A stretch of 37,405 nucleotides of DNA, taken from a virus. Taxonomy: Duplodnaviria; Caudoviricetes. The translations under genes and the position numbers were made by a program. Of the stretch, positions 1,436-36,937 are shown piece by piece; positions within the stretch are counted from its first letter, which is position 1, and each line of letters starts with the position of its first letter. The DNA is taken from the IMG/VR virus record IMGVR_UViG_3300027754_000223, positions 1 through 37,405 of that record; one strand, 5' to 3'. The notes under the pieces were generated by a model. The model was not told the origin of the DNA, did no database searches, and saw nothing but the letters and a program-made list of their open reading frames with translations.

Positions 1436-2310
1436 TGATAAGACACTCAAAAAATGTTCACGAGCTTTCACTAGAAGGCAGTGAAGTAAGGATAGCTATG
1501 CTTAGTGATTTGCACTGGGATAACCCTCATTGTGATAGAGATATGCTAAAGAGACACCTAGACCATTGTGTTAAAGAGAATATACCGGTAATGATTAATG
1601 GTGATATGTTCTGCTTAATGCAAGGGAGGGGAGATAATAGACGTAATAAATCTGATATAAGACCTGAGCACAATAATGCTATGTATTTAGACTCTATAGT
1701 GAACACAGCTGTGGAATGGTTCCTACCCTATGCACATATCATTAAGCTAATAGGTTATGGTAACCATGAGACAAGTATAATAAAATTTCAAGAGACTGAT
1801 ATCCTGCAGAGATTTGTAGATATCCTGAACTTTAAAGCAAAATCTAATATACAAGTAGGAGGCTATGGTGGGTGGTTAGTAGTTAAGCAGGTTTATAGCC
1901 CTGGCAATACTACCTCTTTTACTACTAAAATCAAATACTTTCATGGATCAGGGGGTGGTGGTATAGTTACCAAAGGTGCAATCAATTTAACCAGGGCTCT
2001 AGAAACTTATGAGAACTTTGATGTATTTACAATGGGCCACATACATGAAAATTCATGCAGAAATGATGTTAGGGATACATTAGATCAGCATCCTGTAACA
2101 GGATACACACTTAAGCAAAAACAATTACACTTAATGCTCACAGGAACTTACAAAGAGGAGTATGGTGATGGCTCCCATGGATGGCATGTAGAACGTGGAG
2201 CTCCCATTAAGCCATTAGGTGGTAGGATACTTACAATAAAATGTGGTAGAGAGACTACAGGAGATAGAAAATCTATAAAATTTATTGATAGTCACAAATT
2301 TAATTTGTAA
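1435..2310 (+). CDS. Calcineurin-like metallophosphoesterase
   Basis: SDLH, NGD, GNHE, FHG and GHIH motifs in canonical order. Confidence 0.88.
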   Translation: MIRHSKNVHELSLEGSEVRIAMLSDLHWDNPHCDRDMLKRHLDHCVKENIPVMINGDMFCLMQGRGDNRRNKSDIRPEHNNAMYLDSIVNTAVEWFLPYAHIIKLIGYGNHETSIIKFQETDILQRFVDILNFKAKSNIQVGGYGGWLVVKQVYSPGNTTSFTTKIKYFHGSGGGGIVTKGAINLTRALETYENFDVFTMGHIHENSCRNDVRDTLDQHPVTGYTLKQKQLHLMLTGTYKEEYGDGSHGWHVERGAPIKPLGGRILTIKCGRETTGDRKSIKFIDSHKFNL

Positions 2311-2315
2311 GTTTG
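2285..2315 (+). promoter_or_regulatory. Bacteroidota sigma70-type promoter (TTG-N20-TAAGTTTG) upstream of the hairpin RNA
   Basis: TTG at 2285-2287 and TAnnTTTG at 2308-2315. No ORF lies between it and the terminator. Confidence 0.55.
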
Positions 2316-2319
2316 CAAC

Positions 2320-2386
2320 AGGTTTTGTATTAATAAACTCATAGCCCCCTGTATCTTTGGTTAGTTTGGCAGGGGGTTATTTTTTT
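2320..2386 (+). ncRNA. Candidate ~65-nt small RNA with a single-stranded TTGGTTAGTTTG loop
   Basis: Bounded by a promoter motif and an intrinsic terminator. The loop is complementary to three early-gene leaders. Confidence 0.5.
2341..2386 (+). terminator. Intrinsic terminator with an unusually large 16-nt loop
   Basis: Stem ATAGCCCCCTGT/GCAGGGGGTTAT followed by a T-run. Confidence 0.8.
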
Positions 2387-2649
2387 GTCCTAATTCTACA
2401 AAGATTTGTGACACAATTTTACGGTAAAAGCAAACTACTACCGAGGATTTGTAAAGTTGGTTATAACCAACATAGTAGCTAGAATGGTGGCATAATGTAT
2501 AATATAGCTAACATATTACCCACTTTTTGTCAAGTATATTTAAGGTTATCACCTTACTTCTCATGTATAAATTCAGGCTATTCCTTTACATTACTTATTT
2601 AGAATGATTATTGATAACGTATTTATGTAAACAATTAAATGTTTGTACG

Positions 2650-2657
2650 TATATTTG
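2650..2657 (+). promoter_or_regulatory. Host-type -7 promoter element TATATTTG for the early operon
   Basis: Matches TAnnTTTG, 26 nt upstream of the ATG at 2684. Confidence 0.65.
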
Positions 2658-2683
2658 ACCATTACTAATTTAAACTAACCAAT

Positions 2684-2863
2684 ATGAATGATCAAAAACT
2701 GACAGCTGTTGAGTACCTACTCCAGCAAATTAACACTAACACTGCTTTTACTGACAAGCAATGGGAGAGTATCTGCGAATTAGCTCTAGCTATGGAAAGA
2801 TCACAGCTTATACTTGCAGAAATCAAAGCTACTGACAAAGTTTACAAAATTCAAAGAAAATGA
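2684..2863 (+). CDS. Small early protein, 59 aa (MNDQKLTAVEYLLQQ...)
   Basis: Translated by hand; below the ORF track cut-off. A-rich leader and ATGA coupling to the next ORF. Similar to 36506..36700. Confidence 0.75.
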   Translation: MNDQKLTAVEYLLQQINTNTAFTDKQWESICELALAMERSQLILAEIKATDKVYKIQRK

Positions 2864-2997
2864 GAAAGAAAATATCCGACCTTATCTATTACTTTACACC
2901 CCTCACTGATGAGCATAGAGACATTTTAAGCACTGCTATGGTGTTTATATTGTTTTGGGTGGCAGTCTATACATTTGCATACATTACTAACCTTTAA
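2860..2997 (+). CDS. Small membrane protein, 45 aa
   Basis: MRKKISDLIYYFTPLTDEHRDILSTAMVFILFWVAVYTFAYITNL; ATGA overlap and a C-terminal TM. Confidence 0.7.
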   Translation: MRKKISDLIYYFTPLTDEHRDILSTAMVFILFWVAVYTFAYITNL

Positions 2998-3008
2998 AAC
3001 GCTTTAAA

Positions 3009-3341
3009 ATGAACCTAGAAGACTTACAAGTAGAAAAGTACACAGCATCCATTTGGTATGAAACCTATCACATTGAATTTATCCTTGATTTTGAGTGGAG
3101 CTTTACCTCATTTGATGAGGAAACTAATGAAACCACAGTTAGCATTTGGCTAGATAAGGGTGAGCAGTGGTGTAACAACGTATGCCATCCCTACACCCCT
3201 AACTCAGAAGAGCTAAAAGAATTAAAGACAGCTATAGAGGATAGCATACTAGAAGATCCTGATAGATTTGATGTATGGCAGTGGCACCTAGATAACAAAG
3301 AGTATCAGAACGAACTAAATAATGATAGAGATGATAGATAA
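3009..3341 (+). CDS. Acidic hypothetical protein, 110 aa
   Basis: ORF in the early operon, strongly D/E-rich. Confidence 0.75.
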   Translation: MNLEDLQVEKYTASIWYETYHIEFILDFEWSFTSFDEETNETTVSIWLDKGEQWCNNVCHPYTPNSEELKELKTAIEDSILEDPDRFDVWQWHLDNKEYQNELNNDRDDR

Positions 3342-3498
3342 CACAGCACCAGTACCTACTAACTTTAGCCTACAGACTAAAATAGAGTGGTGGAAAAATA
3401 AAAAGAGCGAAGGAGATAAAGGGGGGAGCTTTAACCTACAGCTTTACCTAGACTACCTCAGCTTACAGGATCATAAACCTAAAGACCAGGAGAAATGA
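3331..3498 (+). CDS. Hypothetical protein, 55 aa (alternative start 3322)
   Basis: Hand translation MIDNTAPVPTNFSLQTKIEWW...; tiles between its neighbours. Confidence 0.65.
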   Translation: MIDNTAPVPTNFSLQTKIEWWKNKKSEGDKGGSFNLQLYLDYLSLQDHKPKDQEK

Positions 3499-3650
3499 AA
3501 CGCTTTAAAGTAACCTATAACTATTTTGATGGTGGTAAAAAGAGGGTAGCTGTCAGGATCTTAGAGGCCCTGGATAGAGACCACGCAATAATGATTATGG
3601 CTATGTGGCCTAAACTAATACTAAAAGTAGAACAGTATGAAAAAATATAG
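3495..3650 (+). CDS. Hypothetical protein, 51 aa
   Basis: MKRFKVTYNYFDGGKKRVAVRILEALDRDHA...; ATGA overlap. Confidence 0.7.
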   Translation: MKRFKVTYNYFDGGKKRVAVRILEALDRDHAIMIMAMWPKLILKVEQYEKI

Positions 3651-3807
3651 AGTATGGATAGATGATAGGATGGAGCCTGAAGGTGGCTTTTGGTGGGAGT
3701 GCTTCCTAGGTAAAGATGGTAAGCTGCATGATTACATCTACACAGATGAGCAAGCAGATACACCACAGTGGTATATTGATAATGGCTATAAAGTAGAAGA
3801 GCTATGA
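3637..3807 (+). CDS. Hypothetical protein, 56 aa
   Basis: MKKYRVWIDDRMEPEGGFWWECF...; its stop overlaps the ATG at 3804. Confidence 0.7.
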   Translation: MKKYRVWIDDRMEPEGGFWWECFLGKDGKLHDYIYTDEQADTPQWYIDNGYKVEEL

Positions 3808-4424
3808 ATGTAAAGATAGAAGTAATTAAAAGGTACCCATTTGAAAGCACTGCTCTATTAGCTAAGGAATTAGGCCTAACAATATCACAGGTGTATAATT
3901 ACGCATGGGCCTATAAGATACATAAGGATCCTATTTACCTAAAGACTGCAGCAAGTGGTAGATATAAAGCAGGGATGAGAAGTGGTGAGGCCTTCCAATT
4001 TAAGCCAGGGCATATCCCAAAAAACAAAGGGGTAAAGATGCCTGCAGAAACTTATGAGAAGGTGAAACCTACCATGTATAAGAAAGGTAACAAGCCAGCT
4101 AACACTCAACCCATTGGAACCATCCACAATAGAGCTGATAAAACAGGTAGACTGTACCAATATATCAAAATTAAAGATAGTCATTGGGAACTCCTGCAGA
4201 GGCACGTATGGACTCAGGCAAATGGTGAGATACCAAAAGGATGTGTTATCAATTTTATAGATGGGAACTTTATGAATTGTGAGCTCAGTAACTTACAAGT
4301 AAAGACCAGGGCAGAAATGGCAATAATGAACAGTATACACAGATACCCTGCAGAGGTTAGGGATCTAATTAAATTAACTAATAAATTAAAAAGTAAAACA
4401 AATGGCAAACAACAAACTAAGTGA
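3804..4424 (+). CDS. HNH-family endonuclease-like protein with N-terminal HTH
   Basis: FKPGHIPKNKG/YKKGNKPAN repeats and an RHVW..NGEIPKG.VI.FIDGN..N...SNL HNH_3-like core. Confidence 0.75.
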   Translation: MNVKIEVIKRYPFESTALLAKELGLTISQVYNYAWAYKIHKDPIYLKTAASGRYKAGMRSGEAFQFKPGHIPKNKGVKMPAETYEKVKPTMYKKGNKPANTQPIGTIHNRADKTGRLYQYIKIKDSHWELLQRHVWTQANGEIPKGCVINFIDGNFMNCELSNLQVKTRAEMAIMNSIHRYPAEVRDLIKLTNKLKSKTNGKQQTK

Positions 4425-4644
4425 TCTAAGAGATCATATATTCATGGCATTAGAAAGATTAGCAGATGAGGGGCTAACAAGTGAGCAGGTAGCTAGTGAA
4501 GTGGATAAGGCTAAAGCAATAGCTCAGCTATCATCTACCATCATAGCCAGTGCAAAGGTGGAGATAGACTATATCAATGCAGTAGGATTAATAGATAGCC
4601 AAAGTGAGCTGTTTAAATCAGTAAACCCTAAATTACTATCATGA
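4402..4644 (+). CDS. Hypothetical phage protein, 80 aa
   Basis: Helical ORF (NKLSDLRDHIFMALERL) overlapping the end of the HNH gene. Confidence 0.75.
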   Translation: MANNKLSDLRDHIFMALERLADEGLTSEQVASEVDKAKAIAQLSSTIIASAKVEIDYINAVGLIDSQSELFKSVNPKLLS

Positions 4645-5003
4645 GTAGACTAGAAGAGGTGCAATATGTTATAGAAAAATATGACTTAAAACAAAAGGGT
4701 AGATATATGCACATGATCTATAAAAGATATTACCTATATAATGTGCTCAAAAAAGATGGTATGACCTTATCACAAATTGGTAGACTGTTTAATCAAAGCC
4801 ACTGTACTGTTTTGAATGGAATTAAAAAGCATGAGGATTACATGGCTTACAAAGATCCTGCTTACATGCTTCACACCAGGGACCTAAGGGAAACATTTGT
4901 ACTACCACAGTACTATAAGCCACTAAAACAAAGGATATTAGAGATATATACCATTGAGAAATTAGAAAAACTTAAAGAGCAGATCAGATGCAATTATTAC
5001 TAA
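4641..5003 (+). CDS. DnaA C-terminal-like helix-turn-helix DNA-binding protein
   Basis: MTLSQIGRLFNQSHCTVLNG resembles the DnaA domain IV signature (SL..IG..F..DHTTV). Confidence 0.7.
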   Translation: MSRLEEVQYVIEKYDLKQKGRYMHMIYKRYYLYNVLKKDGMTLSQIGRLFNQSHCTVLNGIKKHEDYMAYKDPAYMLHTRDLRETFVLPQYYKPLKQRILEIYTIEKLEKLKEQIRCNYY

Positions 5004-5005
5004 TT

Positions 5006-5187
5006 AATGACGCTGTGTCACATTCTCTTATTAACAGCTGCTGGAATAATTTTATTTTTTCAAAAGATTTTTTTTATTTTATTTTGCGTCATTTGCGTCA
5101 TAAAACTCTAATAGTCAATACTAGTATAGTTATTAGCCATGACAAGTGCTTAAAATTTGCGTCATTTTGCGTCATAAACTTGTCATG
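5006..5187. repeat. Iteron cluster and AT-rich tract, putative replication origin
   Basis: TTTGCGTCA at 5083, 5092, 5156 and 5166; inverted AATGACGC at 5006; inverted pair CATGACAAGT (5138)/ACTTGTCATG (5178); T-rich 5046-5085. Confidence 0.7.
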
Positions 5188-5200
5188 TAAAAATAATGAT

Positions 5201-5208
5201 TACATTTA
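5201..5208 (+). promoter_or_regulatory. Variant host-type promoter element TACATTTA before the primase
   Basis: One mismatch to TAnnTTTG, 18 nt upstream of the ATG at 5227. Confidence 0.4.
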
Positions 5209-5226
5209 CAGCCCAACTAACTAACT

Positions 5227-7551
5227 ATGAACATATCTGTATTTAAAAGCCTATTCAATTCTAAAGAAACTCCCTACACACAAGATGTGGTGGATGTTTA
5301 CAATAGGATAAAGGAAGGCTATCCTGAACTAATTGATAAGATAACTGCTCTTAGAGCTATGGATGAGGATGATCCTGCATACAGCAGCCTAAAGAACAGC
5401 CTTAGGGCTATCATGTTTAATGGGACCTTTAATGAACGTAATGATAATGGCCTTATTGAGCACTCAGGGCTTTGTATATTAGATTTTGATGATTACCCTA
5501 GCAGTAAGGTAATGAAAGCTGAGAAGGTTAGACTAATGGAGTGCCCTAATGTGTTTATGATATTTGTATCACCATCAGGTAAAGGGCTAAAGTGCGTGAT
5601 TAAGATACCACCATCTGATAAATTCACGCATAAGAGAAGGTTCAAAGCTTTTCAGGAGTTTATTGATAGTGATTACTTTGATGCATCTAGCTGTAATGTT
5701 AGTAGAGTATGCTTTGAGTCTTATGATCGTGGTGCCTATATAAATTTAGATGCTGAGGTATTTGATTTGATGGAAGAGGAGAAGGGCCACAGCTCATTTG
5801 AAAGGGTGCCAGTGCTACCCATGACTAATGAAGCTAATATCATTGAGAATATAATGAAGTTTAACCATGGAGATATATCAAATGGTAGAAATAATTGGGT
5901 ATTTAAAGTAGCTAACTGTTTTTGTGAGTATGGCATTAGTGAGAATACTGCTAAATTTTACCTTCATCAATATAGTGCTAAGGACTTTACTCAAATAGAA
6001 ATTAATACCTGTGTAGGATCTGCTTATAAAAACCCTAATAAAGGCACTAAGTATTTTGAGGATAAAGAAACTATCTTAAAGGTAAGGTCAAAACTAAAAG
6101 AGGGTATCTCACCTGGTGATATCTCTAAGCAATTAGATATTAAGCCTGATGTGGTAGAGGATGTTAAAAAGGATGTAGCTAATAGTGAGGATGTATTCTG
6201 GTCCATTAGTGATAAGAAAGTAGTTAGTGTAGATCCTATGAGATATCGTGATTTTCTGTACAAGTATGGCTTTAACAAATACTACCCTGAACGCTCAGAG
6301 AAACCCACCTTTGTGAGGGTAATAGAAAATAAAGTTAATTTATCCTCAGTGGACCAGGTAAAAGATTTTGTCTTAGCCTACCTAATGAAGCAGAAGCAGG
6401 TGGATGTATGGAATTACTGCAGTAAGTCACCCTACCTATTCACAGATGGCCACTTATCTATGCTAGAGCCTATTGGATTAATGATGCTGCAGGATACTAA
6501 GGATGTGAGCTTTATACCTTACCGTAATGGAGTAGTTAAGATTACTAAGAATAAGATAGATATTGTGCCCTACATTGATATAGATGGCTACATTTGGGAT
6601 AGGCAAATTATTGATAGGGATTACAAGCCAACTAAGAGCATAGAAAATGACTTTAAGAGCTTTGTATCTAAAGTATCTGCAGATGATGAGCAGAGGGTGA
6701 ATGCTTTAGAGACTACCCTAGGATATCTACTACATACCTACAAAGATAAAACAGATCAGAAGGCAATTATTTTTAATGATCAGGAAATAGATGATAATCC
6801 TAATGGGGGAAGTGGTAAGAGCTTAGTGCTTACAGCTATTGGTAAGATTAGAAATATAGTTAAAATAGATGGTAAAGCATTTAACCCACAGAAGTCAGAT
6901 TTTGTTTATCAGCGAGTAAATTTAGATAGTCAGATCCTGGCCTTTGATGATGTAAAGAAAGCATTTGACTTTGAGCAGCTATTTAGTTTAATATCAGAAG
7001 GGATAACAGTGAACAGAAAGAATAAGGATGAAATCTTTATACCATTTGAACGCTCACCAAAGATTGTGATTACTACCAACTATGTGATAAGTGGTGCCGG
7101 TGGTAGCCATGATAGGAGAAGGCATGAGATAGAGTTTAATCAGTACTTTAATGCACAGCGAAACCCACTAGATGAGTACGGTAGGTTATTATTTGACAGC
7201 TGGAGTGTGGTAGATTGGTTAGTATTTGATAACTACATGATCAGTAACCTGCAGAAATTCTTATCAATGGGCCTTGTTAAAGCTGTAGCAATTAATGCAG
7301 ATCACAAAAGATTTATCTCAGCTACTAATAAGGAATTTTATGATTACGCTATTGAGGGTAACATTACTTTAGATGCTATGCACTATAACAATACTTCTAT
7401 TCAGGACTTTCAGACTTACACAGGTGGATGGCAGGATCTTAATGCTCAAAGGTATTTAAAGATGGTTAATGAGTACTGTAAGTTTAAGGGGTACAATTTG
7501 AAAAAAGATAGGAATGTAGGAGGTAGATACTTTATAATTACTAAGATATGA
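5227..7551 (+). CDS. Primase-helicase (VirE-N/BT4734-like primase, PriCT-like domain, SF3-type helicase)
   Basis: SGLCILDFD and FVSPSGKGLK primase motifs, GRNN PriCT motif, Walker A GGSGKS, Walker B ILAFDD, IVITTN motif C. Confidence 0.88.
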   Translation: MNISVFKSLFNSKETPYTQDVVDVYNRIKEGYPELIDKITALRAMDEDDPAYSSLKNSLRAIMFNGTFNERNDNGLIEHSGLCILDFDDYPSSKVMKAEKVRLMECPNVFMIFVSPSGKGLKCVIKIPPSDKFTHKRRFKAFQEFIDSDYFDASSCNVSRVCFESYDRGAYINLDAEVFDLMEEEKGHSSFERVPVLPMTNEANIIENIMKFNHGDISNGRNNWVFKVANCFCEYGISENTAKFYLHQYSAKDFTQIEINTCVGSAYKNPNKGTKYFEDKETILKVRSKLKEGISPGDISKQLDIKPDVVEDVKKDVANSEDVFWSISDKKVVSVDPMRYRDFLYKYGFNKYYPERSEKPTFVRVIENKVNLSSVDQVKDFVLAYLMKQKQVDVWNYCSKSPYLFTDGHLSMLEPIGLMMLQDTKDVSFIPYRNGVVKITKNKIDIVPYIDIDGYIWDRQIIDRDYKPTKSIENDFKSFVSKVSADDEQRVNALETTLGYLLHTYKDKTDQKAIIFNDQEIDDNPNGGSGKSLVLTAIGKIRNIVKIDGKAFNPQKSDFVYQRVNLDSQILAFDDVKKAFDFEQLFSLISEGITVNRKNKDEIFIPFERSPKIVITTNYVISGAGGSHDRRRHEIEFNQYFNAQRNPLDEYGRLLFDSWSVVDWLVFDNYMISNLQKFLSMGLVKAVAINADHKRFISATNKEFYDYAIEGNITLDAMHYNNTSIQDFQTYTGGWQDLNAQRYLKMVNEYCKFKGYNLKKDRNVGGRYFIITKI

Positions 7552-7751
7552 TACAGATTGGAGATACAATACATGATATTGAGGATGGTGACTGCTATTT
7601 TGAAGGTATAGTTTCTGAATTAATTAATGATAAAGTAACGAAATACATACTAACTAAAATAATTTGGAGTGGAGAGATTGATAATGATGATGAGAGATTA
7701 AATACAGAAATAGATACACAATGGTGGTATATTAATAAAATTGAACTATGA
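7548..7751 (+). CDS. Hypothetical protein, 67 aa (replaced by an MTase in copy 2)
   Basis: ATGA-coupled on both sides. Confidence 0.7.
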   Translation: MIQIGDTIHDIEDGDCYFEGIVSELINDKVTKYILTKIIWSGEIDNDDERLNTEIDTQWWYINKIEL

Positions 7752-8203
7752 ACAAAGAAAACAAAGCTAGACTAAAGGATCTAGAAATTAAGTACATGAG
7801 CTACCGGTACCCATCAGCACCAGGGCACATCATACCACTAACTAAGTACAGTGATGCTACAGCTAATGGATTGACTAAATGTATCAAAGACTTCCTAAAC
7901 TTCTCACAGCACCAAGCTGAAAGGATTAATACAATGGGAGTATTTAGGCAAAGCTACAGAACTGATGGAAGTAAGACTGCAGGGCAGTGGACAAAGGGCA
8001 CAGGCACTCCAGGATCTGCAGATATCTCTGCTACTATTTATGGTAGATCTGTAAAGATAGAAGTTAAGATTGGTAAGGATAAGCAGTCAGTGGTGCAGAA
8101 GGAATACCAACAGATGATTGAAGCTGCAGGGGGTATCTATATCATAAGCAAGACCTTTGATGATTTTGTGCAGTGGTATGATGATTTTAGCACTAAAATA
8201 TAA
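7748..8203 (+). CDS. VRR-NUC / PD-(D/E)XK nuclease, putative Holliday junction resolvase
   Basis: GSADI...KIEVK...QS..Q motif pattern. Confidence 0.8.
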   Translation: MNKENKARLKDLEIKYMSYRYPSAPGHIIPLTKYSDATANGLTKCIKDFLNFSQHQAERINTMGVFRQSYRTDGSKTAGQWTKGTGTPGSADISATIYGRSVKIEVKIGKDKQSVVQKEYQQMIEAAGGIYIISKTFDDFVQWYDDFSTKI

Positions 8204-8234
8204 TTAACGTACAACCTTAAAATATAGAAATGAT

Positions 8235-8438
8235 ATGAAAGCAACCCTAGAATTTAACCTACCTGAAGATCAGGAGGTATTTAACCACGCTAACAATGGT
8301 TTTAACTATTACATGGCACTTGTGGAGATGGATCAGTGGTTAAGAGCTGAGTACAAGTACAATGGTAACGAGGAGATGTATGAGGTAAGGAATAAGCTGA
8401 GAGAAATAATTTCAGAAAATAATGTTAAAATAGAATAA
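8235..8438 (+). CDS. Hypothetical protein, 67 aa
   Basis: Frame conserved with substitutions in copy 2 (36697..36900). Confidence 0.8.
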   Translation: MKATLEFNLPEDQEVFNHANNGFNYYMALVEMDQWLRAEYKYNGNEEMYEVRNKLREIISENNVKIE

Positions 8439-8444
8439 TAATAG

Positions 8445-8452
8445 TATATTTG
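8445..8452 (+). promoter_or_regulatory. Host-type -7 element TATATTTG for the recombination operon
   Basis: Intergenic, 23 nt upstream of the ATG at 8476; conserved at 36907. Confidence 0.65.
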
Positions 8453-8475
8453 TAAATAATTAACAAACTAACCCA

Positions 8476-9027
8476 ATGGAAAAAACAACTACAAAGGCTG
8501 TAAAGCCTCAGGAGGTTGAGCAGCAGTCTGCTCCTTTCTATGTTCGCCTTCACAAGGCAAAACAACTAATCGGTAAAGTACATAAGAATGCTACTAACCC
8601 CCACTTTAAGAAATCTTATGCAGATATCAATAGTATATTAGAAGCTGTTGAGCCTATCCTATTACAGCATGATCTACTTTTATTACAGCCTATAGATGGT
8701 GGTAGTGTTTGTACTCAGCTTGTATGCATTTATACTGGCTTTTCTATCTCTAGCTGTATGGCACTTGATTTAAACCTAGATGCCCAAAAACAGGGTAGTC
8801 AAATTTCTTACTTTCGTAGGTACACCATCCAAAGTCTGCTCACCCTTCAGGCAACTGATGATGATGGCCACGTAGCATCTACTGCGAAGCCTAAGATAGA
8901 TGCAAAGAGATTTGCTGAGGCTGTTAAGACTATAGCAGATGGTAAATTCACAGTAGAGAAGTTAAAGGATAGCTTTGATCTTACAGATGTGCAGATAAAT
9001 TCACTGTTATTATTACCTGTAATATGA
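8476..9027 (+). CDS. erf: ERF-family single-strand annealing protein
   Basis: NPHFKKSYA..I, Q..GS.ISYFRRY and DDDG motifs. Confidence 0.85.
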   Translation: MEKTTTKAVKPQEVEQQSAPFYVRLHKAKQLIGKVHKNATNPHFKKSYADINSILEAVEPILLQHDLLLLQPIDGGSVCTQLVCIYTGFSISSCMALDLNLDAQKQGSQISYFRRYTIQSLLTLQATDDDGHVASTAKPKIDAKRFAEAVKTIADGKFTVEKLKDSFDLTDVQINSLLLLPVI

Positions 9028-10239: not shown

Positions 10240-10247
10240 TATATTTG
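10240..10247 (+). promoter_or_regulatory. Host-type -7 element TATATTTG, probably giving a leaderless mRNA for the sigma operon
   Basis: Only 4 nt separate the motif from the ATG at 10252. Confidence 0.6.
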
Positions 10248-10251
10248 AGCT

Positions 10252-10500
10252 ATGAATTTACTAGCTCTTATACCTTTAGCTTGGTGGTTTACTAATTTTG
10301 AACCAATACAGGCAACCTTAGACTATTTTTTTAAGTACAATACTAGGTACCCAATAGCCATACATATACACTCTGCACTAGGATGTATTAAATGTGTGGC
10401 TTTTTGGCTTACTTTACTTTTTACCTTTGATTTTATCCTGGCTTGTCAGGCTGCACTGCTTGCTTTTATACTAGATGAATGTTTACAGAAACTGAGATAG
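10252..10500 (+). CDS. Membrane protein with CxxC motif
   Basis: Hydrophobic segments flanking GCIKCVAFW. Confidence 0.7.
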   Translation: MNLLALIPLAWWFTNFEPIQATLDYFFKYNTRYPIAIHIHSALGCIKCVAFWLTLLFTFDFILACQAALLAFILDECLQKLR

Positions 10501-11929: not shown

Positions 11930-11979
11930 TATAATAATAATAATAACTATATAGTATCTAACTAGGTACTAGCTTTGCT

Positions 11980-13128
11980 ATGGATATAAAAGCGACTGCC
12001 ATCTTTGAAAAGAACTATGAGGCCATCTTAGGAGATAAGCGCTTTATCATTAATGAGGGTGGTAGTAGAAGCTCTAAGACCTACAGCCTCTGCCAGCTCA
12101 TGATCATCTACTGCCTGCAGAATAACAATAAAGTGGTGTCAGTGATACGCAAGACCTTCCCTGCCCTACGTGCTACAGTGCTTAGGGACTTCATAGAGAT
12201 ACTAAAAGATATAGGGCTGTACAAGCAGGAGAGCCACAATAAGAGTGAGCACATCTACACCTTTGGCAATGGATCTATGGTGGAGTTTTTCTCAGTAGAT
12301 GATGAGCAAAAGATAAGGGGTAGAAAGAGGGATATAGCTTGGTGTAATGAAGCTAATGAGCTGTACTTTGATGACTTCACTCAGCTTAACATGAGAACAG
12401 AAGACAAGCTCATCTTTGACTACAACCCATCTGATAGTGTATCGTGGCTGTATGAGCTCCCTGCTGAGGAGAGCACCCTGATTAAGTCTACCTACAAAGA
12501 TAACCCCTTCCTACCTGAGAGCATTAAGGCACAGATAGAGGATCTAGCTAGAACAGATGAGGCACTGTATCAGATATATGCCTTAGGTGAGAAGGCAACA
12601 AGCAAGAGTAACATCTACAGCAACTGGTCCTTTGTAGCTCATAGGCCTGCTAGATTTGTTAAGTACGTGTATGGCTTAGACTTTGGTTACAACCACCCAA
12701 CAGCTCTGATGAGGGTATACTACTGTGATAATGATATCTACATTGAGCCTGTCATCTATGAGAGCTACCTAACCACTACCATGCTCATAGAGAAGTTAGC
12801 CACCCTAAACATAGAACAGACTGTAACCATCTTAGCAGATTACTCACGTCCAGAAATCATACAAGAGATGAACATAGCAGGGTATGATGTTCAGAATGCA
12901 AACAAGGTGGTTAAGAAAGGGATAGATAACCTTAAGACCTTTGGAGTTATATGCCAGGATGATAAGGCCATTAAGAGAGAGTATGAGAACTACAAGTGGA
13001 AGAAGATAGGGGACTTCATAACAGATGAGCCAGTCAAATTATTTGATGATGCAATGGATGCAATAAGATATGCCACTACTCACATAAGGCAGGAGTATTA
13101 CACTGATGATAGCTACTATGCATTCTGA
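11980..13128 (+). CDS. terL: Terminase large subunit, PBSX family
   Basis: EGGSRSSKT Walker A, AWCNEA Walker B, DYNP, GLDFGY and DDAMDAIRYA nuclease motifs. Confidence 0.95.
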   Translation: MDIKATAIFEKNYEAILGDKRFIINEGGSRSSKTYSLCQLMIIYCLQNNNKVVSVIRKTFPALRATVLRDFIEILKDIGLYKQESHNKSEHIYTFGNGSMVEFFSVDDEQKIRGRKRDIAWCNEANELYFDDFTQLNMRTEDKLIFDYNPSDSVSWLYELPAEESTLIKSTYKDNPFLPESIKAQIEDLARTDEALYQIYALGEKATSKSNIYSNWSFVAHRPARFVKYVYGLDFGYNHPTALMRVYYCDNDIYIEPVIYESYLTTTMLIEKLATLNIEQTVTILADYSRPEIIQEMNIAGYDVQNANKVVKKGIDNLKTFGVICQDDKAIKREYENYKWKKIGDFITDEPVKLFDDAMDAIRYATTHIRQEYYTDDSYYAF

Positions 13129-21150: not shown

Positions 21151-21603
21151 ATGGGTATATACGCAAACACTGGAGAATTTAATGTGCTATATCCTACACG
21201 TAGGAGGATGGCTACTATATTGAAAAGGATATTAAGGAATGATATAGTAGATGGTGAAGGCACCCTAGTAGAAAGTATACGTATCAATGCTAAGATTACA
21301 GGCTTTGAGAAATTAGAGATACAAATAGTAGCCATGTATTATTTTATATTTCTCAACAATGGAGCTTTCTTATGGAATGGTGGTGTAATTACCCCTAGAG
21401 ATTATGTAGCACAATTCACAGCTGAGCTAGCTAGTGCAGGTATTACTGCTGAAATATACTCACAATATACTGAATGGCTTACTAAGAGATATCCTTTAGT
21501 AGAAGCTGTAGAAGTGCTAGAAAGAAATCAAAAACTAGTATACACATTTGAGGCACTAGATCCACCTGCAGGATTTACACCTGGTTACCCCTTAGATGTC
21601 TAG
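21151..21603 (+). CDS. Putative neck/virion morphogenesis protein
   Basis: 150 aa; G.LVESI and YYFIFLNNG resemble tail-completion proteins. Confidence 0.45.
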   Translation: MGIYANTGEFNVLYPTRRRMATILKRILRNDIVDGEGTLVESIRINAKITGFEKLEIQIVAMYYFIFLNNGAFLWNGGVITPRDYVAQFTAELASAGITAEIYSQYTEWLTKRYPLVEAVEVLERNQKLVYTFEALDPPAGFTPGYPLDV

Positions 21604-22329
21604 CTCTTTTTTCATACCCATCATATTGAATACATAGGTAAGGGGTAGAGCTCCTATCTTATCAGACTTAGTAAGATCATTATTGCATAGGCCGTAGATC
21701 ATACGCTCCCAACTCCACTTACTATCTTTCTTAGTATCCTCCTCCTCTTTCAACTCATCAGGTGTGAGCTGTGATTTCTCTTCTGCTGTTAGCTCAGGTA
21801 ACTCCTCACCTTGAAATAAGTTTTGGTAGGTCTTTAGAAAATTATCTCTAAACTTTAAAAAATCACTAATGATACCATACACATCTGTGATGGGTACATC
21901 TAAGAACTTATCAGCTCTGATAGTACAATCATACTCATACGGTTCTATTATCTCTTCACCCCACTCATTAATTGTACTTTGCCTGTACAGCACCCCACAG
22001 ATATTAGCTAGATTAGTGATGTAGTTATTAGTAAAATAATAGTCCAGGTCTATGTACTCATAGAGGCACAGCTTATTAAAGGGCTTTACCTTCATACCTA
22101 GAAGCTCTGATTTATAATTATTAGATGGCTGTGAGAGTGCCCATTTACACTGCTTAACTATATTAAACATCTCATCAACATCAAGCTCATCTATTACCTC
22201 AGTAGACTCATCACAAATAATAGATAATATCTCAGTATTATAGTAGTAAGCTCCTTGCGCTTTATCTATCTCAGATATCTCTAGAAACTGCTCTACAGTT
22301 ATCTCACTCCACTGCTTCGGTAGGTACAT
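21592..22329 (-). CDS. Putative tail assembly chaperone-like protein
   Basis: Long minus-strand ORF, PKQWSEITVEQF; related to 22304..22870. Confidence 0.5.
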   Translation of the reverse strand: MYLPKQWSEITVEQFLEISEIDKAQGAYYYNTEILSIICDESTEVIDELDVDEMFNIVKQCKWALSQPSNNYKSELLGMKVKPFNKLCLYEYIDLDYYFTNNYITNLANICGVLYRQSTINEWGEEIIEPYEYDCTIRADKFLDVPITDVYGIISDFLKFRDNFLKTYQNLFQGEELPELTAEEKSQLTPDELKEEEDTKKDSKWSWERMIYGLCNNDLTKSDKIGALPLTYVFNMMGMKKELDI

Positions 22330-22870
22330 TTTCTATTGTTTCTGTAGGTGCATTCTCTACTTGTTTTTTTATTTTGTTAGCAACAAACATAATGTAAGGG
22401 ATGCATATCTCTGCTTTCAGTTTTCTTATGTGCTTAGACTTTAACTTAAGATGTGCTTCTGCATAGTGCTCTGAAATAGTAAGGTGATCTGCTTTAAACA
22501 TTACAGCCATCATATCTGAGATGTACCCCTTCTGCTTATGGATAGCAATCTTTTCTATTAGCTTAGTTTCACGTACTGTTAGTTTAAGCTCTGCTGTATA
22601 TGTAAAGCCATCTAGCTCTAATGTACCTACAGGCTCCATATGATTTGTAAGCTCAGGTGCTGTATTAAACTCTTTAACAATATCAATAAAATCAGAGATG
22701 TCAAAGTCAAAAAATTCCTTCTCAGGTATTCCTAGATACTCAAAGATTTGCAGATGCCTATCCACAGGATCTATCTCTTTATTATTGTTAATATCTGTAA
22801 TTGCTTCGAACTGCTCAATAGTCAGCTCTTCAATTTTGTTGGGGATCTCCCTTCCTAAAATAGTTACCAT
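22304..22870 (-). CDS. Putative tail assembly chaperone-like protein (paralog of 21592..22329)
   Basis: PNKIEELTIEQF; host-type promoter upstream. Confidence 0.5.
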   Translation of the reverse strand: MVTILGREIPNKIEELTIEQFEAITDINNNKEIDPVDRHLQIFEYLGIPEKEFFDFDISDFIDIVKEFNTAPELTNHMEPVGTLELDGFTYTAELKLTVRETKLIEKIAIHKQKGYISDMMAVMFKADHLTISEHYAEAHLKLKSKHIRKLKAEICIPYIMFVANKIKKQVENAPTETIENVPTEAVE

Positions 22871-22881
22871 AGTTAATTTTT

Positions 22882-22915
22882 TTACAAATATATGAATAAT
22901 TATAATATAGGTATG
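22882..22915 (+). promoter_or_regulatory. Late promoter motif 4 (TTACA-N16-TAATATAGGTATG)
   Basis: Ends in the in-frame ATG at 22913. Confidence 0.75.
22885..22892 (-). promoter_or_regulatory. Host-type -7 element TATATTTG driving the minus-strand pair
   Basis: Reads CAAATATA on the + strand, 14 nt from the start at 22870. Confidence 0.6.
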
Positions 22916-29276: not shown

Positions 29277-30152
29277 ATGATAAGACACTCAAAGAATGTT
29301 CACGAGCTTTCACTAGAAGGCAGTGAAGTAAGGATAGCTATGCTTAGTGATTTGCATTGGGATAACCCTCACTGTGATAGAGATATGCTAAAGAGACACC
29401 TGGACTATTGTGTTAAAGAGAATATACCGGTAATGATTAATGGTGATATGTTCTGCTTAATGCAAGGGAGGGGAGATAATAGACGTAATAAATCTGATAT
29501 AAGACCTGAGCACAATAATGCTATGTATTTAGACTCTATAGTGAACACAGCTGTGGAATGGTTCCTACCCTATGCACATATCATTAAGCTAATAGGTTAT
29601 GGTAACCATGAGACAAGTATAATAAAATTTCAAGAGACTGATATCCTGCAGAGATTTGTAGATATCCTGAACTTTAAAGCAAAATCTAATATACAAGTAG
29701 GAGGCTATGGTGGGTGGTTAGTAGTTAAGCAGGTTTATAGCCCTGGCAATACTACCTCTTTTACTACTAAAATCAAATACTTTCATGGATCAGGGGGTGG
29801 TGGTATAGTTACCAAAGGTGCAATCAATTTAACCAGGGCTCTAGAAACTTATGAGAACTTTGATGTATTTACAATGGGCCACATACATGAAAATTCATGC
29901 AGAAATGATGTTAGGGATACATTAGATCAGCATCCTGTAACAGGATACACACTTAAGCAAAAACAATTACACTTAATGCTCACAGGAACTTACAAAGAGG
30001 AGTATGGTGATGGCTCCCATGGATGGCATGTAGAACGTGGAGCTCCCATTAAGCCATTAGGTGGTAGGATACTTACAATAAAATGTGGTAGAGAGACTAC
30101 AGGAGATAGAAAATCTATAAAATTTATTGATAGTCACAAATTTAATTTGTAA
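29277..30152 (+). CDS. Metallophosphoesterase (copy 2)
   Basis: As 1435..2310, with one H/Y change seen. Confidence 0.88.
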   Translation: MIRHSKNVHELSLEGSEVRIAMLSDLHWDNPHCDRDMLKRHLDYCVKENIPVMINGDMFCLMQGRGDNRRNKSDIRPEHNNAMYLDSIVNTAVEWFLPYAHIIKLIGYGNHETSIIKFQETDILQRFVDILNFKAKSNIQVGGYGGWLVVKQVYSPGNTTSFTTKIKYFHGSGGGGIVTKGAINLTRALETYENFDVFTMGHIHENSCRNDVRDTLDQHPVTGYTLKQKQLHLMLTGTYKEEYGDGSHGWHVERGAPIKPLGGRILTIKCGRETTGDRKSIKFIDSHKFNL

Positions 30153-30161
30153 GTTTGCAAC

Positions 30162-30228
30162 AGGTTTTGTATTAATAAACTCATAGCCCCCTGTATCTTT
30201 GGTTAGTTTGGCAGGGGGTTATTTTTTT
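30162..30228 (+). ncRNA. Candidate small RNA/terminator hairpin (copy 2)
   Basis: Identical to 2320..2386. Confidence 0.5.
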
Positions 30229-30525
30229 GTCCTAATTCTACAAAGATTTGTGACACAATTTTACGGTAAAAGCAAACTACTACCGAGGATTTGTAAAGTT
30301 GGTTATAACCAACATAGTAGCTAGAATGGTGGCATAATGTATAATATAGCTAACATATTACCCACTTTTTGTCAAGTATATTTAAGGTTATCACCTTACT
30401 TCTCATGTATAAATTCAGGCTATTCCTTTACATTACTTATTTAGAATGATTATTGATAACGTATTTATGTAAACAATTAAATGTTTGTACGTATATTTGA
30501 CCATTACTAATTTAAACTAACCAAT

Positions 30526-33068: not shown

Positions 33069-35393
33069 ATGAACATATCTGTATTTAAAAGCCTATTCAA
33101 TTCTAAAGAAACTCCCTACACACAAGATGTGGTGGATGTTTACAATAGGATAAAGGAAGGCTATCCTGAACTAATTGATAAGATAACTGCTCTTAGAGCT
33201 ATGGATGAGGATGATCCTGCATACAGCAGCCTAAAGAACAGCCTTAGGGCTATCATGTTTAATGGGACCTTTAATGAACGTAATGATAATGGCCTTATTG
33301 AGCACTCAGGGCTTTGTATATTAGATTTTGATGATTACCCTAGCAGTAAGGTAATGAAAGCTGAGAAGGTTAGACTAATGGAGTGCCCTAATGTGTTTAT
33401 GATATTTGTATCACCATCAGGTAAAGGGCTAAAGTGCGTGATTAAGATACCACCATCTGATAAATTCACGCATAAGAGAAGGTTCAAAGCTTTTCAGGAG
33501 TTTATTGATAGTGATTACTTTGATGCATCTAGCTGTAATGTTAGTAGAGTATGCTTTGAGTCTTATGATCGTGGTGCCTATATAAATTTAGATGCTGAGG
33601 TATTTGATTTGATGGAAGAGGAGAAGGGCCACAGCTCATTTGAAAGGGTGCCAGTGCTACCCATGACTAATGAAGCTAATATCATTGAGAATATAATGAA
33701 GTTTAACCATGGAGATATATCAAATGGTAGAAATAATTGGGTATTTAAAGTAGCTAACTGTTTTTGTGAGTATGGCATTAGTGAGAATACTGCTAAATTT
33801 TACCTTCATCAATATAGTGCTAAGGACTTTACTCAAATAGAAATTAATACCTGTGTAGGATCTGCTTATAAAAACCCTAATAAAGGCACTAAGTATTTTG
33901 AGGATAAAGAAACTATCTTAAAGGTAAGGTCAAAACTAAAAGAGGGTATCTCACCTGGTGATATCTCTAAGCAATTAGATATTAAGCCTGATGTGGTAGA
34001 GGATGTTAAAAAGGATGTAGCTAATAGTGAGGATGTATTCTGGTCCATTAGTGATAAGAAAGTAGTTAGTGTAGATCCTATGAGATATCGTGATTTTCTG
34101 TACAAGTATGGCTTTAACAAATACTACCCTGAACGCTCAGAGAAACCCACCTTTGTGAGGGTAATAGAAAATAAAGTTAATTTATCCTCAGTGGACCAGG
34201 TAAAAGATTTTGTCTTAGCCTACCTAATGAAGCAGAAGCAGGTGGATGTATGGAATTACTGCAGTAAGTCACCCTACCTATTCACAGATGGCCACTTATC
34301 TATGCTAGAGCCTATTGGATTAATGATGCTGCAGGATACTAAGGATGTGAGCTTTATACCTTACCGTAATGGAGTAGTTAAGATTACTAAGAATAAGATA
34401 GATATTGTGCCCTACATTGATATAGATGGCTACATTTGGGATAGGCAAATTATTGATAGGGATTACAAGCCAACTAAGAGCATAGAAAATGACTTTAAGA
34501 GCTTTGTATCTAAAGTATCTGCAGATGATGAGCAGAGGGTGAATGCTTTAGAGACTACCCTAGGATATCTACTACATACCTACAAAGATAAAACAGATCA
34601 GAAGGCAATTATTTTTAATGATCAGGAAATAGATGATAATCCTAATGGGGGAAGTGGTAAGAGCTTAGTGCTTACAGCTATTGGTAAGATTAGAAATATA
34701 GTTAAAATAGATGGTAAAGCATTTAACCCACAGAAGTCAGATTTTGTTTATCAGCGAGTAAATTTAGATAGTCAGATCCTGGCCTTTGATGATGTAAAGA
34801 AAGCATTTGACTTTGAGCAGCTATTTAGTTTAATATCAGAAGGGATAACAGTGAACAGAAAGAATAAGGATGAAATCTTTATACCATTTGAACGCTCACC
34901 AAAGATTGTGATTACTACCAACTATGTGATAAGTGGTGCCGGTGGTAGCCATGATAGGAGAAGGCATGAGATAGAGTTTAATCAGTACTTTAATGCACAG
35001 CGAAACCCACTAGATGAGTACGGTAGGTTATTATTTGACAGCTGGAGTGTGGTAGATTGGTTAGTATTTGATAACTACATGATCAGTAACCTGCAGAAAT
35101 TCTTATCAATGGGCCTTGTTAAAGCTGTAGCAATTAATGCAGATCACAAAAGATTTATCTCAGCTACTAATAAGGAATTTTATGATTACGCTATTGAGGG
35201 TAACATCACAATGGATGTACTTCACTATAACAACGTATCTATTCAGGACTTCCAAACTTACACAGGTGGGTGGCATGATCTTAATGCTCAGAGGTATCTA
35301 AAGATGGTTAATGAGTACTGCAAGTTTAAGGGGTACAATTTGAAAAAAGATAGGAATGTAGGAGGTAGATACTTTATAATTAGTAAGATATGA
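33069..35393 (+). CDS. Primase-helicase (copy 2, divergent last ~60 codons)
   Basis: As 5227..7551. Confidence 0.88.
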   Translation: MNISVFKSLFNSKETPYTQDVVDVYNRIKEGYPELIDKITALRAMDEDDPAYSSLKNSLRAIMFNGTFNERNDNGLIEHSGLCILDFDDYPSSKVMKAEKVRLMECPNVFMIFVSPSGKGLKCVIKIPPSDKFTHKRRFKAFQEFIDSDYFDASSCNVSRVCFESYDRGAYINLDAEVFDLMEEEKGHSSFERVPVLPMTNEANIIENIMKFNHGDISNGRNNWVFKVANCFCEYGISENTAKFYLHQYSAKDFTQIEINTCVGSAYKNPNKGTKYFEDKETILKVRSKLKEGISPGDISKQLDIKPDVVEDVKKDVANSEDVFWSISDKKVVSVDPMRYRDFLYKYGFNKYYPERSEKPTFVRVIENKVNLSSVDQVKDFVLAYLMKQKQVDVWNYCSKSPYLFTDGHLSMLEPIGLMMLQDTKDVSFIPYRNGVVKITKNKIDIVPYIDIDGYIWDRQIIDRDYKPTKSIENDFKSFVSKVSADDEQRVNALETTLGYLLHTYKDKTDQKAIIFNDQEIDDNPNGGSGKSLVLTAIGKIRNIVKIDGKAFNPQKSDFVYQRVNLDSQILAFDDVKKAFDFEQLFSLISEGITVNRKNKDEIFIPFERSPKIVITTNYVISGAGGSHDRRRHEIEFNQYFNAQRNPLDEYGRLLFDSWSVVDWLVFDNYMISNLQKFLSMGLVKAVAINADHKRFISATNKEFYDYAIEGNITMDVLHYNNVSIQDFQTYTGGWHDLNAQRYLKMVNEYCKFKGYNLKKDRNVGGRYFIISKI

Positions 35394-36019
35394 TACAGAT
35401 AACAAACGAGGATAACATGGAGCTAATGGCTAGGTATCCTGACAAGTATTTTGATTTAGCTATAGTAGATCCCCCTTATGGGATTGGAGAAGGTTCTAAA
35501 AAAATACATTCAAGAGGAAAGTCACAACTAAAATATACAGCTAAAGATTGGGATAGCTCAACACCAAGTAAAGAGTATTTTGATGAATTATTTAGAGTTA
35601 GTAAAAATCAAATTATTTGGGGTGCAAATCATTTTATTGAAAGTATTAATAAAAATTCAAGTTGTTGGCTTTTTTGGGATAAAGATGGTTATGGAGATTT
35701 TGCTGATGGGGAGCTTGCTTGGTGCAGTTTTAAGACGGCCGTTAGAAAGTTTAAGTTTACTTGGAATGGATTTAGAAAACAAATTCCACAAGATAGAATA
35801 CACCCTACTGAAAAACCTTTTAGTTTGTATAAATGGCAATTAGATAATTATGCAAAGAAAGGCGATAAAATACTTGATACACACTTGGGTTCGGGAAGTA
35901 TAGCAATAGCTTGTTATGACTATGGATTTGAATTGACGGCTTGCGAAATTGACAAGGAGTATTTCGATAAGGCAATGCAAAGAATAGAAAACCACAAAGC
36001 ACAACTAAAATTATTCTAA
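35390..36019 (+). CDS. Orphan N6-adenine/N4-cytosine DNA methyltransferase, beta-class order
   Basis: DLAIVDPPY catalytic motif, HPTEKP, then the ILDTHLGSGS SAM-binding motif. Confidence 0.92.
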   Translation: MIQITNEDNMELMARYPDKYFDLAIVDPPYGIGEGSKKIHSRGKSQLKYTAKDWDSSTPSKEYFDELFRVSKNQIIWGANHFIESINKNSSCWLFWDKDGYGDFADGELAWCSFKTAVRKFKFTWNGFRKQIPQDRIHPTEKPFSLYKWQLDNYAKKGDKILDTHLGSGSIAIACYDYGFELTACEIDKEYFDKAMQRIENHKAQLKLF

Positions 36020-36474
36020 TGAACAAAGAAAACAAAGCTAGACTAAAGGATCTAGAAATTAAGTACATGAGCTACAGGTACCCATCAGCACCAGGGCACA
36101 TCATACCACTAACTAAGTACTCAGATGCTACAGCTAATGGCTTGACTAAATGTATCAAGGACTTCCTAAACTACTCACAGCACCAAGCTGAAAGGATTAA
36201 TACAATGGGAGTATTTAGGCAGTCATATAGAACCGATGGCACTAAGACTGCAGGGCAGTGGACCAAGGGCACAGGCACTCCAGGATCTGCAGATATCTCT
36301 GCTACTATTTATGGAAGATCTGTAAAGATAGAAGTAAAGATTGGTAAGGATAAGCAGTCAGTGGTGCAGAAGGAATACCAACAGATGATAGAAGCTGCAG
36401 GGGGGGTGTATATAATCTCTAAGACCTTTGATGATTTCGTGCAGTGGTATGATGATTTTAGCACTAAAATATAA
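36019..36474 (+). CDS. VRR-NUC nuclease (allele 2)
   Basis: Near-identical to 7748..8203. Confidence 0.8.
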   Translation: MNKENKARLKDLEIKYMSYRYPSAPGHIIPLTKYSDATANGLTKCIKDFLNYSQHQAERINTMGVFRQSYRTDGTKTAGQWTKGTGTPGSADISATIYGRSVKIEVKIGKDKQSVVQKEYQQMIEAAGGVYIISKTFDDFVQWYDDFSTKI

Positions 36475-36505
36475 TATACGTACAACCTTAAAATATAGAA
36501 ATGAT

Positions 36506-36700
36506 ATGAAAGCAACAGCAGTAGAATGGTTATTAGATAGTTTAGATTACAACCAAAATATGTTAGGTATAAAAGAAATTATTGAACAAGCCAAAGAAAT
36601 GGAGAAAGAGCAGATAATTGATGCGTATGAATATACAGCAGCAGGAACAAGCCATTATGGTGAACAATACTACAACGAAACCTTTAAACAAAAACAATGA
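36506..36700 (+). CDS. Inserted 64-aa protein (MKATAVEWL...AKEMEKEQIIDAY)
   Basis: Start moved from 36428 to the ATG at 36506, which uses the leader that precedes 8235 in copy 1. Absent from copy 1. Confidence 0.75.
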   Translation: MKATAVEWLLDSLDYNQNMLGIKEIIEQAKEMEKEQIIDAYEYTAAGTSHYGEQYYNETFKQKQ

Positions 36701-36900: not shown

Positions 36901-36937
36901 TAGTAGTATATTTGTAAATAATTAACAAACTAACCCA

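Follow-up and report, generated by a model that had tools for sequence, protein, structure and literature searches.

The DNA between positions 2285 and 2386 of a 37,405-nt viral sequence (the whole stretch analysed, hereafter the window) is likely, judged from its letters and their conservation, to be the gene for a small RNA of ∼67 nt. We consider it rather probable that this RNA pairs in trans with the leaders of early phage genes and thereby caps or times early translation. Comparison with related phages establishes, at the level of the DNA, the complementarity between an RNA seed and short tags in the leaders, a conserved layout of promoter box, hairpin and terminator, and a joint change of seed and tag across clades. 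It is very likely from these properties that RNA–RNA pairing takes place in one way or another, be it for timing, for immunity or by late transcripts. For small phages in which no repressor, sigma factor or polymerase can be recognised, it is largely open how genes read from host promoters are turned off, and this holds above all for Bacteroidota hosts, where Shine-Dalgarno sequences are ignored by the ribosomes. An RNA of 40–70 nt that reads the tag of each early leader would, if true, be a simple answer.

The phage genome and its likely host

The window consists of a phage genome of ∼27.8 kb and a partial second copy with 93–97% identity; the contig combines two variants, possibly by chimeric assembly. 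The second copy differs ahead of the ERF gene (36246–36696) and carries a DNA methyltransferase gene (35390–36019) at the place of a 67-aa gene in the first copy (7548–7751). Searches of 44 proteins against PHROGs named an amidase, an HNH nuclease, ERF, an exonuclease, SSB, terminase, a virion protein and portal, and Pfam assigned PriCT_1 and BT4734-like_N primase-type domains to the gene at 5227–7551 and a metallophosphoesterase (MPE) to the gene at 1435–2310. Neither PHROGs (44 proteins) nor Pfam (26 proteins) yielded an integrase or a CI-type repressor, and no partition genes were recognised among the 44 proteins compared with PHROGs. The first-pass annotation had likewise seen no recognisable repressor or integrase; this holds for the integrase, but for the repressor a caveat has to be made for an HTH-like gene at 4641–5003 (DnaA_C with E = 2e-5, below the Pfam cut-off).

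Promoters of the Bacteroidota type have the −7 consensus TAnnTTTG. Boxes of this kind together with A-rich leaders make a Bacteroidota bacterium the likely host. Among 14 matches in genome collections, 5 were binned with Flavobacterium or Flavobacteriaceae and the remainder in unrelated or other bins; no integrated relative was seen among the 14, every one of which is found on a MAG contig no longer than 34 kb. No cultured close relative was found among 50,697 phage records, with no DNA match for positions 1500–9000, and the best protein matches among cultured phage records reached 35% and 38%. On the plus strand, two −7 boxes (10240–10254 and 11970–11982) lie 4 and 2 nt ahead of an ATG, which suggests transcripts that lack a leader, including that of the large terminase gene; such messages, if made, would escape the loop RNA described below. 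On the minus strand, two overlapping unannotated genes (21592–22870) lie amid structural genes behind a host-type box and are kept in six of the seed classes introduced below.

A candidate small RNA gene behind the metallophosphoesterase gene

A promoter-like site of the Bacteroidota type at 2285–2315 (plus strand) is composed of a TTG (2285–2287), a spacer of 20 nt and the −7 box TAAGTTTG (2308–2315), whose TAA is the stop codon of the MPE gene. The predicted RNA begins with a 5′ hairpin, P1 (2320–2339, plus strand), which is weak in this genome (−0.4 kcal/mol) and varies in sequence among relatives. It ends with a terminator hairpin (2341–2386, plus strand) in which the stem 2341–2352 pairs with 2369–2380 and is followed by a U-tract at 2380–2386; the predicted fold has −20.6 kcal/mol (z −4.6). 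The loop of this hairpin (2353–2368, plus strand) is predicted to be exposed, with an opening cost of 1.6 kcal/mol, and represents the predicted seed. On sequence and conservation, the unit thus has a promoter-like box and an intrinsic terminator of its own and no conserved open reading frame, as is expected of a small RNA gene. A second copy of the unit (30127–30228, plus strand), with target copies at 30514, 33057 and 36926, is 100% identical over 116 nt and therefore gives no independent support for the unit itself. Contigs from one RNA run were <90% identical to the window and left 2271–2538 uncovered, and no relative locus closely matched this run.

Predicted pairing of the loop with early leaders

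The loop is complementary to tags directly ahead of three early start codons on the plus strand. The leader of the first early gene (2650–2686) has a −7 box, a tag at 2672–2682 and its ATG at 2684, and can form 11 Watson-Crick pairs with the loop (−13.7 kcal/mol). At the primase-type gene (5201–5229) a variant box precedes a tag at 5215–5224 and the ATG at 5227 (10 pairs, one of them G-U; −9.8 kcal/mol), and at the gene of the ERF annealing protein (8445–8478) a −7 box is followed by a tag at 8464–8473 and the ATG at 8476 (10 pairs; −13.8 kcal/mol). A probable, weaker fourth target is the −7 box and leader of gene 22870 on the minus strand (22868–22892; −9.0 kcal/mol). We also note an uncertain minor site on the plus strand (2970–3011; −9.1 kcal/mol) where a box (2970) is followed by a tag of 7 nt (2986), which lies 17–23 nt ahead of the ATG at 3009 and varies among the closer relatives (class A, see below).

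The coordinates given for promoter, loop and targets in the first-pass annotation were all correct on recheck, and the 8464 site is indeed kept in the second haplotype at 36926–36935. The three targets named there are also those that the loop prefers: among 42 annotated starts they hold ranks 1–3 in pairing, and the gene at 22870 is weaker at rank 5. Apart from the hairpin itself, the only places in the window with 10 or 11 nt complementary to the loop are sites 2672 and 8464, each with its second copy. The leaders are predicted to be unstructured, with an opening cost of 0.1–0.9 kcal/mol as compared with −9.8 to −13.8 kcal/mol for the three main duplexes. In the control with shuffled loops, the sum of the top three pairings was reached in 55 of 2000 trials that preserved mononucleotide and in 68 of 2000 that preserved dinucleotide composition; at p ∼0.03 the match within the window alone is only suggestive, and the case therefore rests on the relatives. 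The concern that the tag might be just as common before host genes was not borne out: in four Flavobacteriaceae-type MAGs (2.4–4.5 Mb; these may not be the host) it precedes an ATG 5–10 times per MAG, less often than the reversed control, versus 2 times in 27.8 kb here.

Conservation of the unit among related phages

A search of IMG/VR yielded 289 relative loci, some of them the same contig twice. The end of the MPE gene is contained in 239 sequences including the window, 184 of which are distinct over 510 nt. We defined nine seed classes from the unit alone, by which 199 of the 239 loci could be classified; the unit of the window belongs to class A. A classed box-to-terminator unit follows the MPE gene in 151 of the 184 distinct sequences, spread over all nine classes, and 33 are without one at this place. 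When distinct sequences were chosen solely by an MPE identity of at least 79%, the core 12-mer of the loop was present in 49 out of 50, while its flanks differ. Over 23 distinct rows (uncorrected for kinship), 93.7% of the cells in the terminator stem are paired, and double-sided changes occur in 4 of its 11 pairs; pairing and covariation score exceed those of all 500 shuffles and of all slid controls. Since P1 could not be aligned column by column, it was assessed by folding each sequence: the 31 distinct variants have a mean folding z of −2.9, and 29 of them lie below −1. In distinct class A leaders the tag is found at ERF in 24/24, at the primase gene in 23/23 and at the first early gene in 38/42.

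The −7 box lies on the stop codon in 46 of the 70 class A loci, and it overlaps the TAA in most other classes as well, so its TA comes free; departures from the consensus are frequent among the boxes of classes other than A, B and H. These observations would fit a hairpin that is the 3′ end of the late lysis transcript, with no separate small RNA at all, which pairs with early leaders late in infection or, on read-through RNA, hides the leader of the first early gene. We regard this reading as quite unlikely, because the other 24 of the 70 class A loci have a separate canonical box, TATATTTG, 9 nt after the stop codon, and the distance from box to RNA is constant across the 70 loci whichever arrangement they have. 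Moreover, the units of L275, L188, L268 and L269 sit away from the end of the MPE gene, each with its own box, and targets 3–6 kb off speak against a purely intramolecular effect.

The unit is dispensable in this phage group, since two types of relatives are without it: in the complete genome L121/G001, nested in clade A, the scan detected neither the unit nor the class A tag, and in the L137/L292 type the unit was not detected. L121/G001 represents a natural loss or replacement and is worth comparing.

Two further elements of the early region deserve mention. Relatives carry a second kind of promoter-to-terminator unit of 75–110 nt, which was not found in the window: it is seen in L200 (1561 nt past the MPE stop codon), at L188:1743, L280:1554, L269:13829 and L295:2193 and further at L138:11042, L292:14008 and L293:11723. 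In several of these the loop of a 5′ hairpin appears complementary to a later segment, as in a pseudoknot, and L200, L138 and L147 gave no Rfam match at gathering score. In the window, the stretch that separates the terminator from the first early promoter contains a perfect 16-bp palindrome (2456–2471, plus strand) and weaker inverted repeats (2417–2429, 2500–2518 and 2541–2556); these are possibly DNA-binding or origin sites. The palindrome was also considered as a relative of the tag and rejected: it is tag-like, yet it occurs in class A (11/43) and class C (9/30) alike and does not track the seed.

Seed and tag change together across classes

At the same position, more distant phages have a terminator preceded by a box and a short single-stranded stretch, with different words. 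We compared each seed with target leaders that had been chosen by orthology or position and not by match; the automatically picked first early leaders of L023, L027 and L055 look mis-called and were retained. For seven of the nine classes, the strongest predicted pairing of the seed is with own-class leaders of the first early, primase and ERF genes (F and I are the exceptions), a result equalled by only 2 of 362,880 permutations, or by 1 of 720 when just the six most distinct classes are kept, without the mutually similar D, E and F. By gene, the own class is best in 6/9 for the first early gene, 4/5 for the primase gene and 6/7 for ERF. Leaders of late and other non-target genes served as a control and preferred their own class in 2/30 comparisons (capsid 1/7, protease 0/7, portal 0/7, amidase 1/6, SSB 0/3); for the minus-strand gene at 22870 the own class is best in 3/6. 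The suggestion of the first-pass annotation that one trans-pairing RNA serves the promoter-led early starts has thus passed a test across clades, and its non-target control came out as it should.

With respect to the direction from box to terminator, the seed is antisense in all nine classes, and its predicted probability of being unpaired is 0.46–0.94 on average (eight classes). In class A the terminator loop provides the seed, which spans roughly −12 to −2 of the target; in classes B–H the seed is part of the 5′ tail and usually extends across the AUG. A conserved seed, accessible by prediction, that is complementary to several translation start regions is what is expected of a small regulatory RNA.

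Could the match be due to chance, with U-rich terminator flanks meeting A-rich leaders, or to a relic, the seed being the leader of a tiny minus-strand gene? The leaders are A-rich, the p-value for the single genome is only ∼0.03, and seven extra units (six new to the test) placed their own leaders at ranks 1, 1, 2, 9, 11, 12 and 19 of 19 genomes, so that four show no preference, each unit being scored on 2–6 partly doubtful leaders from partial loci. The class-specific matrix and the negative late-gene controls largely refute this explanation, which we find hardly credible. A minus-strand mini-gene starting from the seed was discarded as a candidate: its reading frame is absent in 47 of 70 class A loci and elsewhere has 2–71 codons with no conserved length.

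Alternatively, a phage protein might bind the tag as a DNA operator, of which the terminator would contain a single inverted copy. Every tagged gene is promoter-led, the HTH-like gene at 4641–5003 could supply the protein, and 64 target sites show no bias towards G-U-compatible changes (C>T 0.092 versus T>C 0.068; A>G 0.013 versus G>A 0.171). However, among class A loci with the same loop the identity of the HTH protein goes from 100% down to ∼28–35%, and class E has several HTH types, one of them common to class C; the operator model is weakened because this protein varies freely under a constant tag. In addition, the copy in the unit is inverted and single-stranded in position in every class, and in classes C, E and G, and trivially in B, the distance of the tag from the ATG varies less than that from the box; in class A the ATG is no tighter an anchor than the promoter (SD 4.2 versus 4.3). 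Taken together, an operator is very improbable. The lack of a G-U bias also speaks against the pairing of RNA and leaders, as do uncompensated pairs seen for the seed of L170 and the leaders of L163 and L164.

In an MPE tree of 54 representatives the seed labels require 11 changes for 10 groups. The seeds thus follow the phage tree, and the independent switches number a handful, not hundreds. First early leaders of the class B type are found in L203 and L229 (class C) and in L069 (class G), which suggests an exchange of modules. In the window, the leader of gene 3009 (2993–3011, plus strand) has a class B-like tag word beside an incomplete class A tag, perhaps a remnant from an earlier type of seed.

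Seeds and tags that diverged jointly into at least nine types resemble repressor–operator pairs, which likewise diverge together, and the RNA may be thought of as a protein-free repressor for immunity or a carrier state. A resident, non-integrated genome would then make the RNA constantly and silence its own early genes and those of incoming kin, the seed classes being immunity types. The unit has its own host-type box, and neither an integrase nor a CI-type repressor emerged from the scans described above. Still, this explanation is unlikely in our view: no partition genes were recognised, no integrated relative was among the 14 genome-collection matches, and the specificity would be poor, since seed G pairs nearly as well with B leaders and seed D with C leaders as with their own.

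A model for the control of early translation

We favour the action of the small RNA as a timer of early translation, which may proceed as follows. The host sigma factor would transcribe the RNA from the start of infection, just as it would transcribe the targets. The stable hairpin RNA would build up, and late lysis transcripts that end at the same terminator would add more of it. The loop would then pair with the 8–11 nt tag just ahead of the promoter-led early start codons and block ribosome loading. In Bacteroidetes, initiation depends on upstream nucleotides such as A-3 and on low structure, not on Shine-Dalgarno sequences (PMC6847099). Given this mode of initiation, open leaders and a seed that is cheap to open, a helix at −12 to −2 should hinder loading of the 30S subunit. 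The first cistrons, i.e. the first early gene, the primase gene, ERF and probably the minus-strand gene, would be turned down, and the genes behind them would fall by coupling or decay. As the RNA and its targets share one promoter type, the simplest circuit is delayed negative feedback, and the net effect would be a protein-free ceiling and timer on early and replication genes. In most other clades an RNA of 40–55 nt, with the seed in its 5′ tail and usually over the AUG, would do the same job.

A more far-reaching version, which we offer as possible but doubtful, is an RNA address code: the tiny RNA would be the master repressor of all host-promoter-led operons in place of a protein repressor, the lineage-specific seed–tag pairs would define immunity types, and the seed would have moved between 5′ tail and terminator loop. 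The naturally orthogonal seed–tag pairs allow reporter tests without phage culture and, if the model is true, would be compact translational repressors for Bacteroidota genetics.

Comparison with known phage RNAs

The literature covered, mainly that with open access, did not reveal an RNA in Bacteroidota phages that reads tags on several targets, and in the three supplementary files covered, out of six in PMC10690425, the three seed words do not occur. The region 1–30600 of the window gave no Rfam match up to E 1, c4 (RF01695) included, and nine loci of other classes gave none at gathering score.

The P4 CI RNA is a small phage RNA that controls genes of its own phage by pairing and is involved in a life-cycle decision; the c4 and P4 CI RNAs are processed from a precursor by RNase P. 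The analogy to P4 CI drawn in the first-pass annotation is sound in principle but does not extend to membership: besides the missing Rfam match, the one-operon layout of c4 and P4 CI, with the RNA ahead of icd/ant or kil, is not found here, as the unit has its own terminator and its targets head separate promoter-led operons. The same likeness exists to c4 of P1 and P7, a phage small RNA that controls own genes by pairing in a life-cycle decision (PMC8198154); RF01695 is listed in PMC2864571. c4 shares an operon with its targets icd and ant and acts under the protein repressor C1, whereas the unit studied here comes with a box and a terminator of its own and would act on three or four separate operons 0.3–7 kb away. 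No homologue of ant or icd was found in the PHROGs or Pfam scans.

The RNAs sar, OOP and aQ are encoded on the strand opposite their target and have long perfect complementarity to it. For the present unit such a cis-antisense arrangement is not found, the targets being 0.3–7 kb away and the longest perfect match 11 nt. P22 sar, lambda OOP and aQ block or degrade phage mRNA at or near the translation start (PMC12197685), and the action proposed here would likewise be at phage translation starts; they have one target each, in contrast to a unit encoded elsewhere with a seed of 8–11 nt and several targets. PreS of lambda, VpdS of VP882 and 24B_1 also pair briefly and imperfectly from a separate locus (PMC12197685), but these act via Hfq and largely on host genes or on one antirepressor, and none is described there with a shared tag in the early leaders of its own phage or with seed and tag swapped between clades. 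In its proposed manner of working, the unit is like P1 c4 and P22 sar, yet it is a member of neither.
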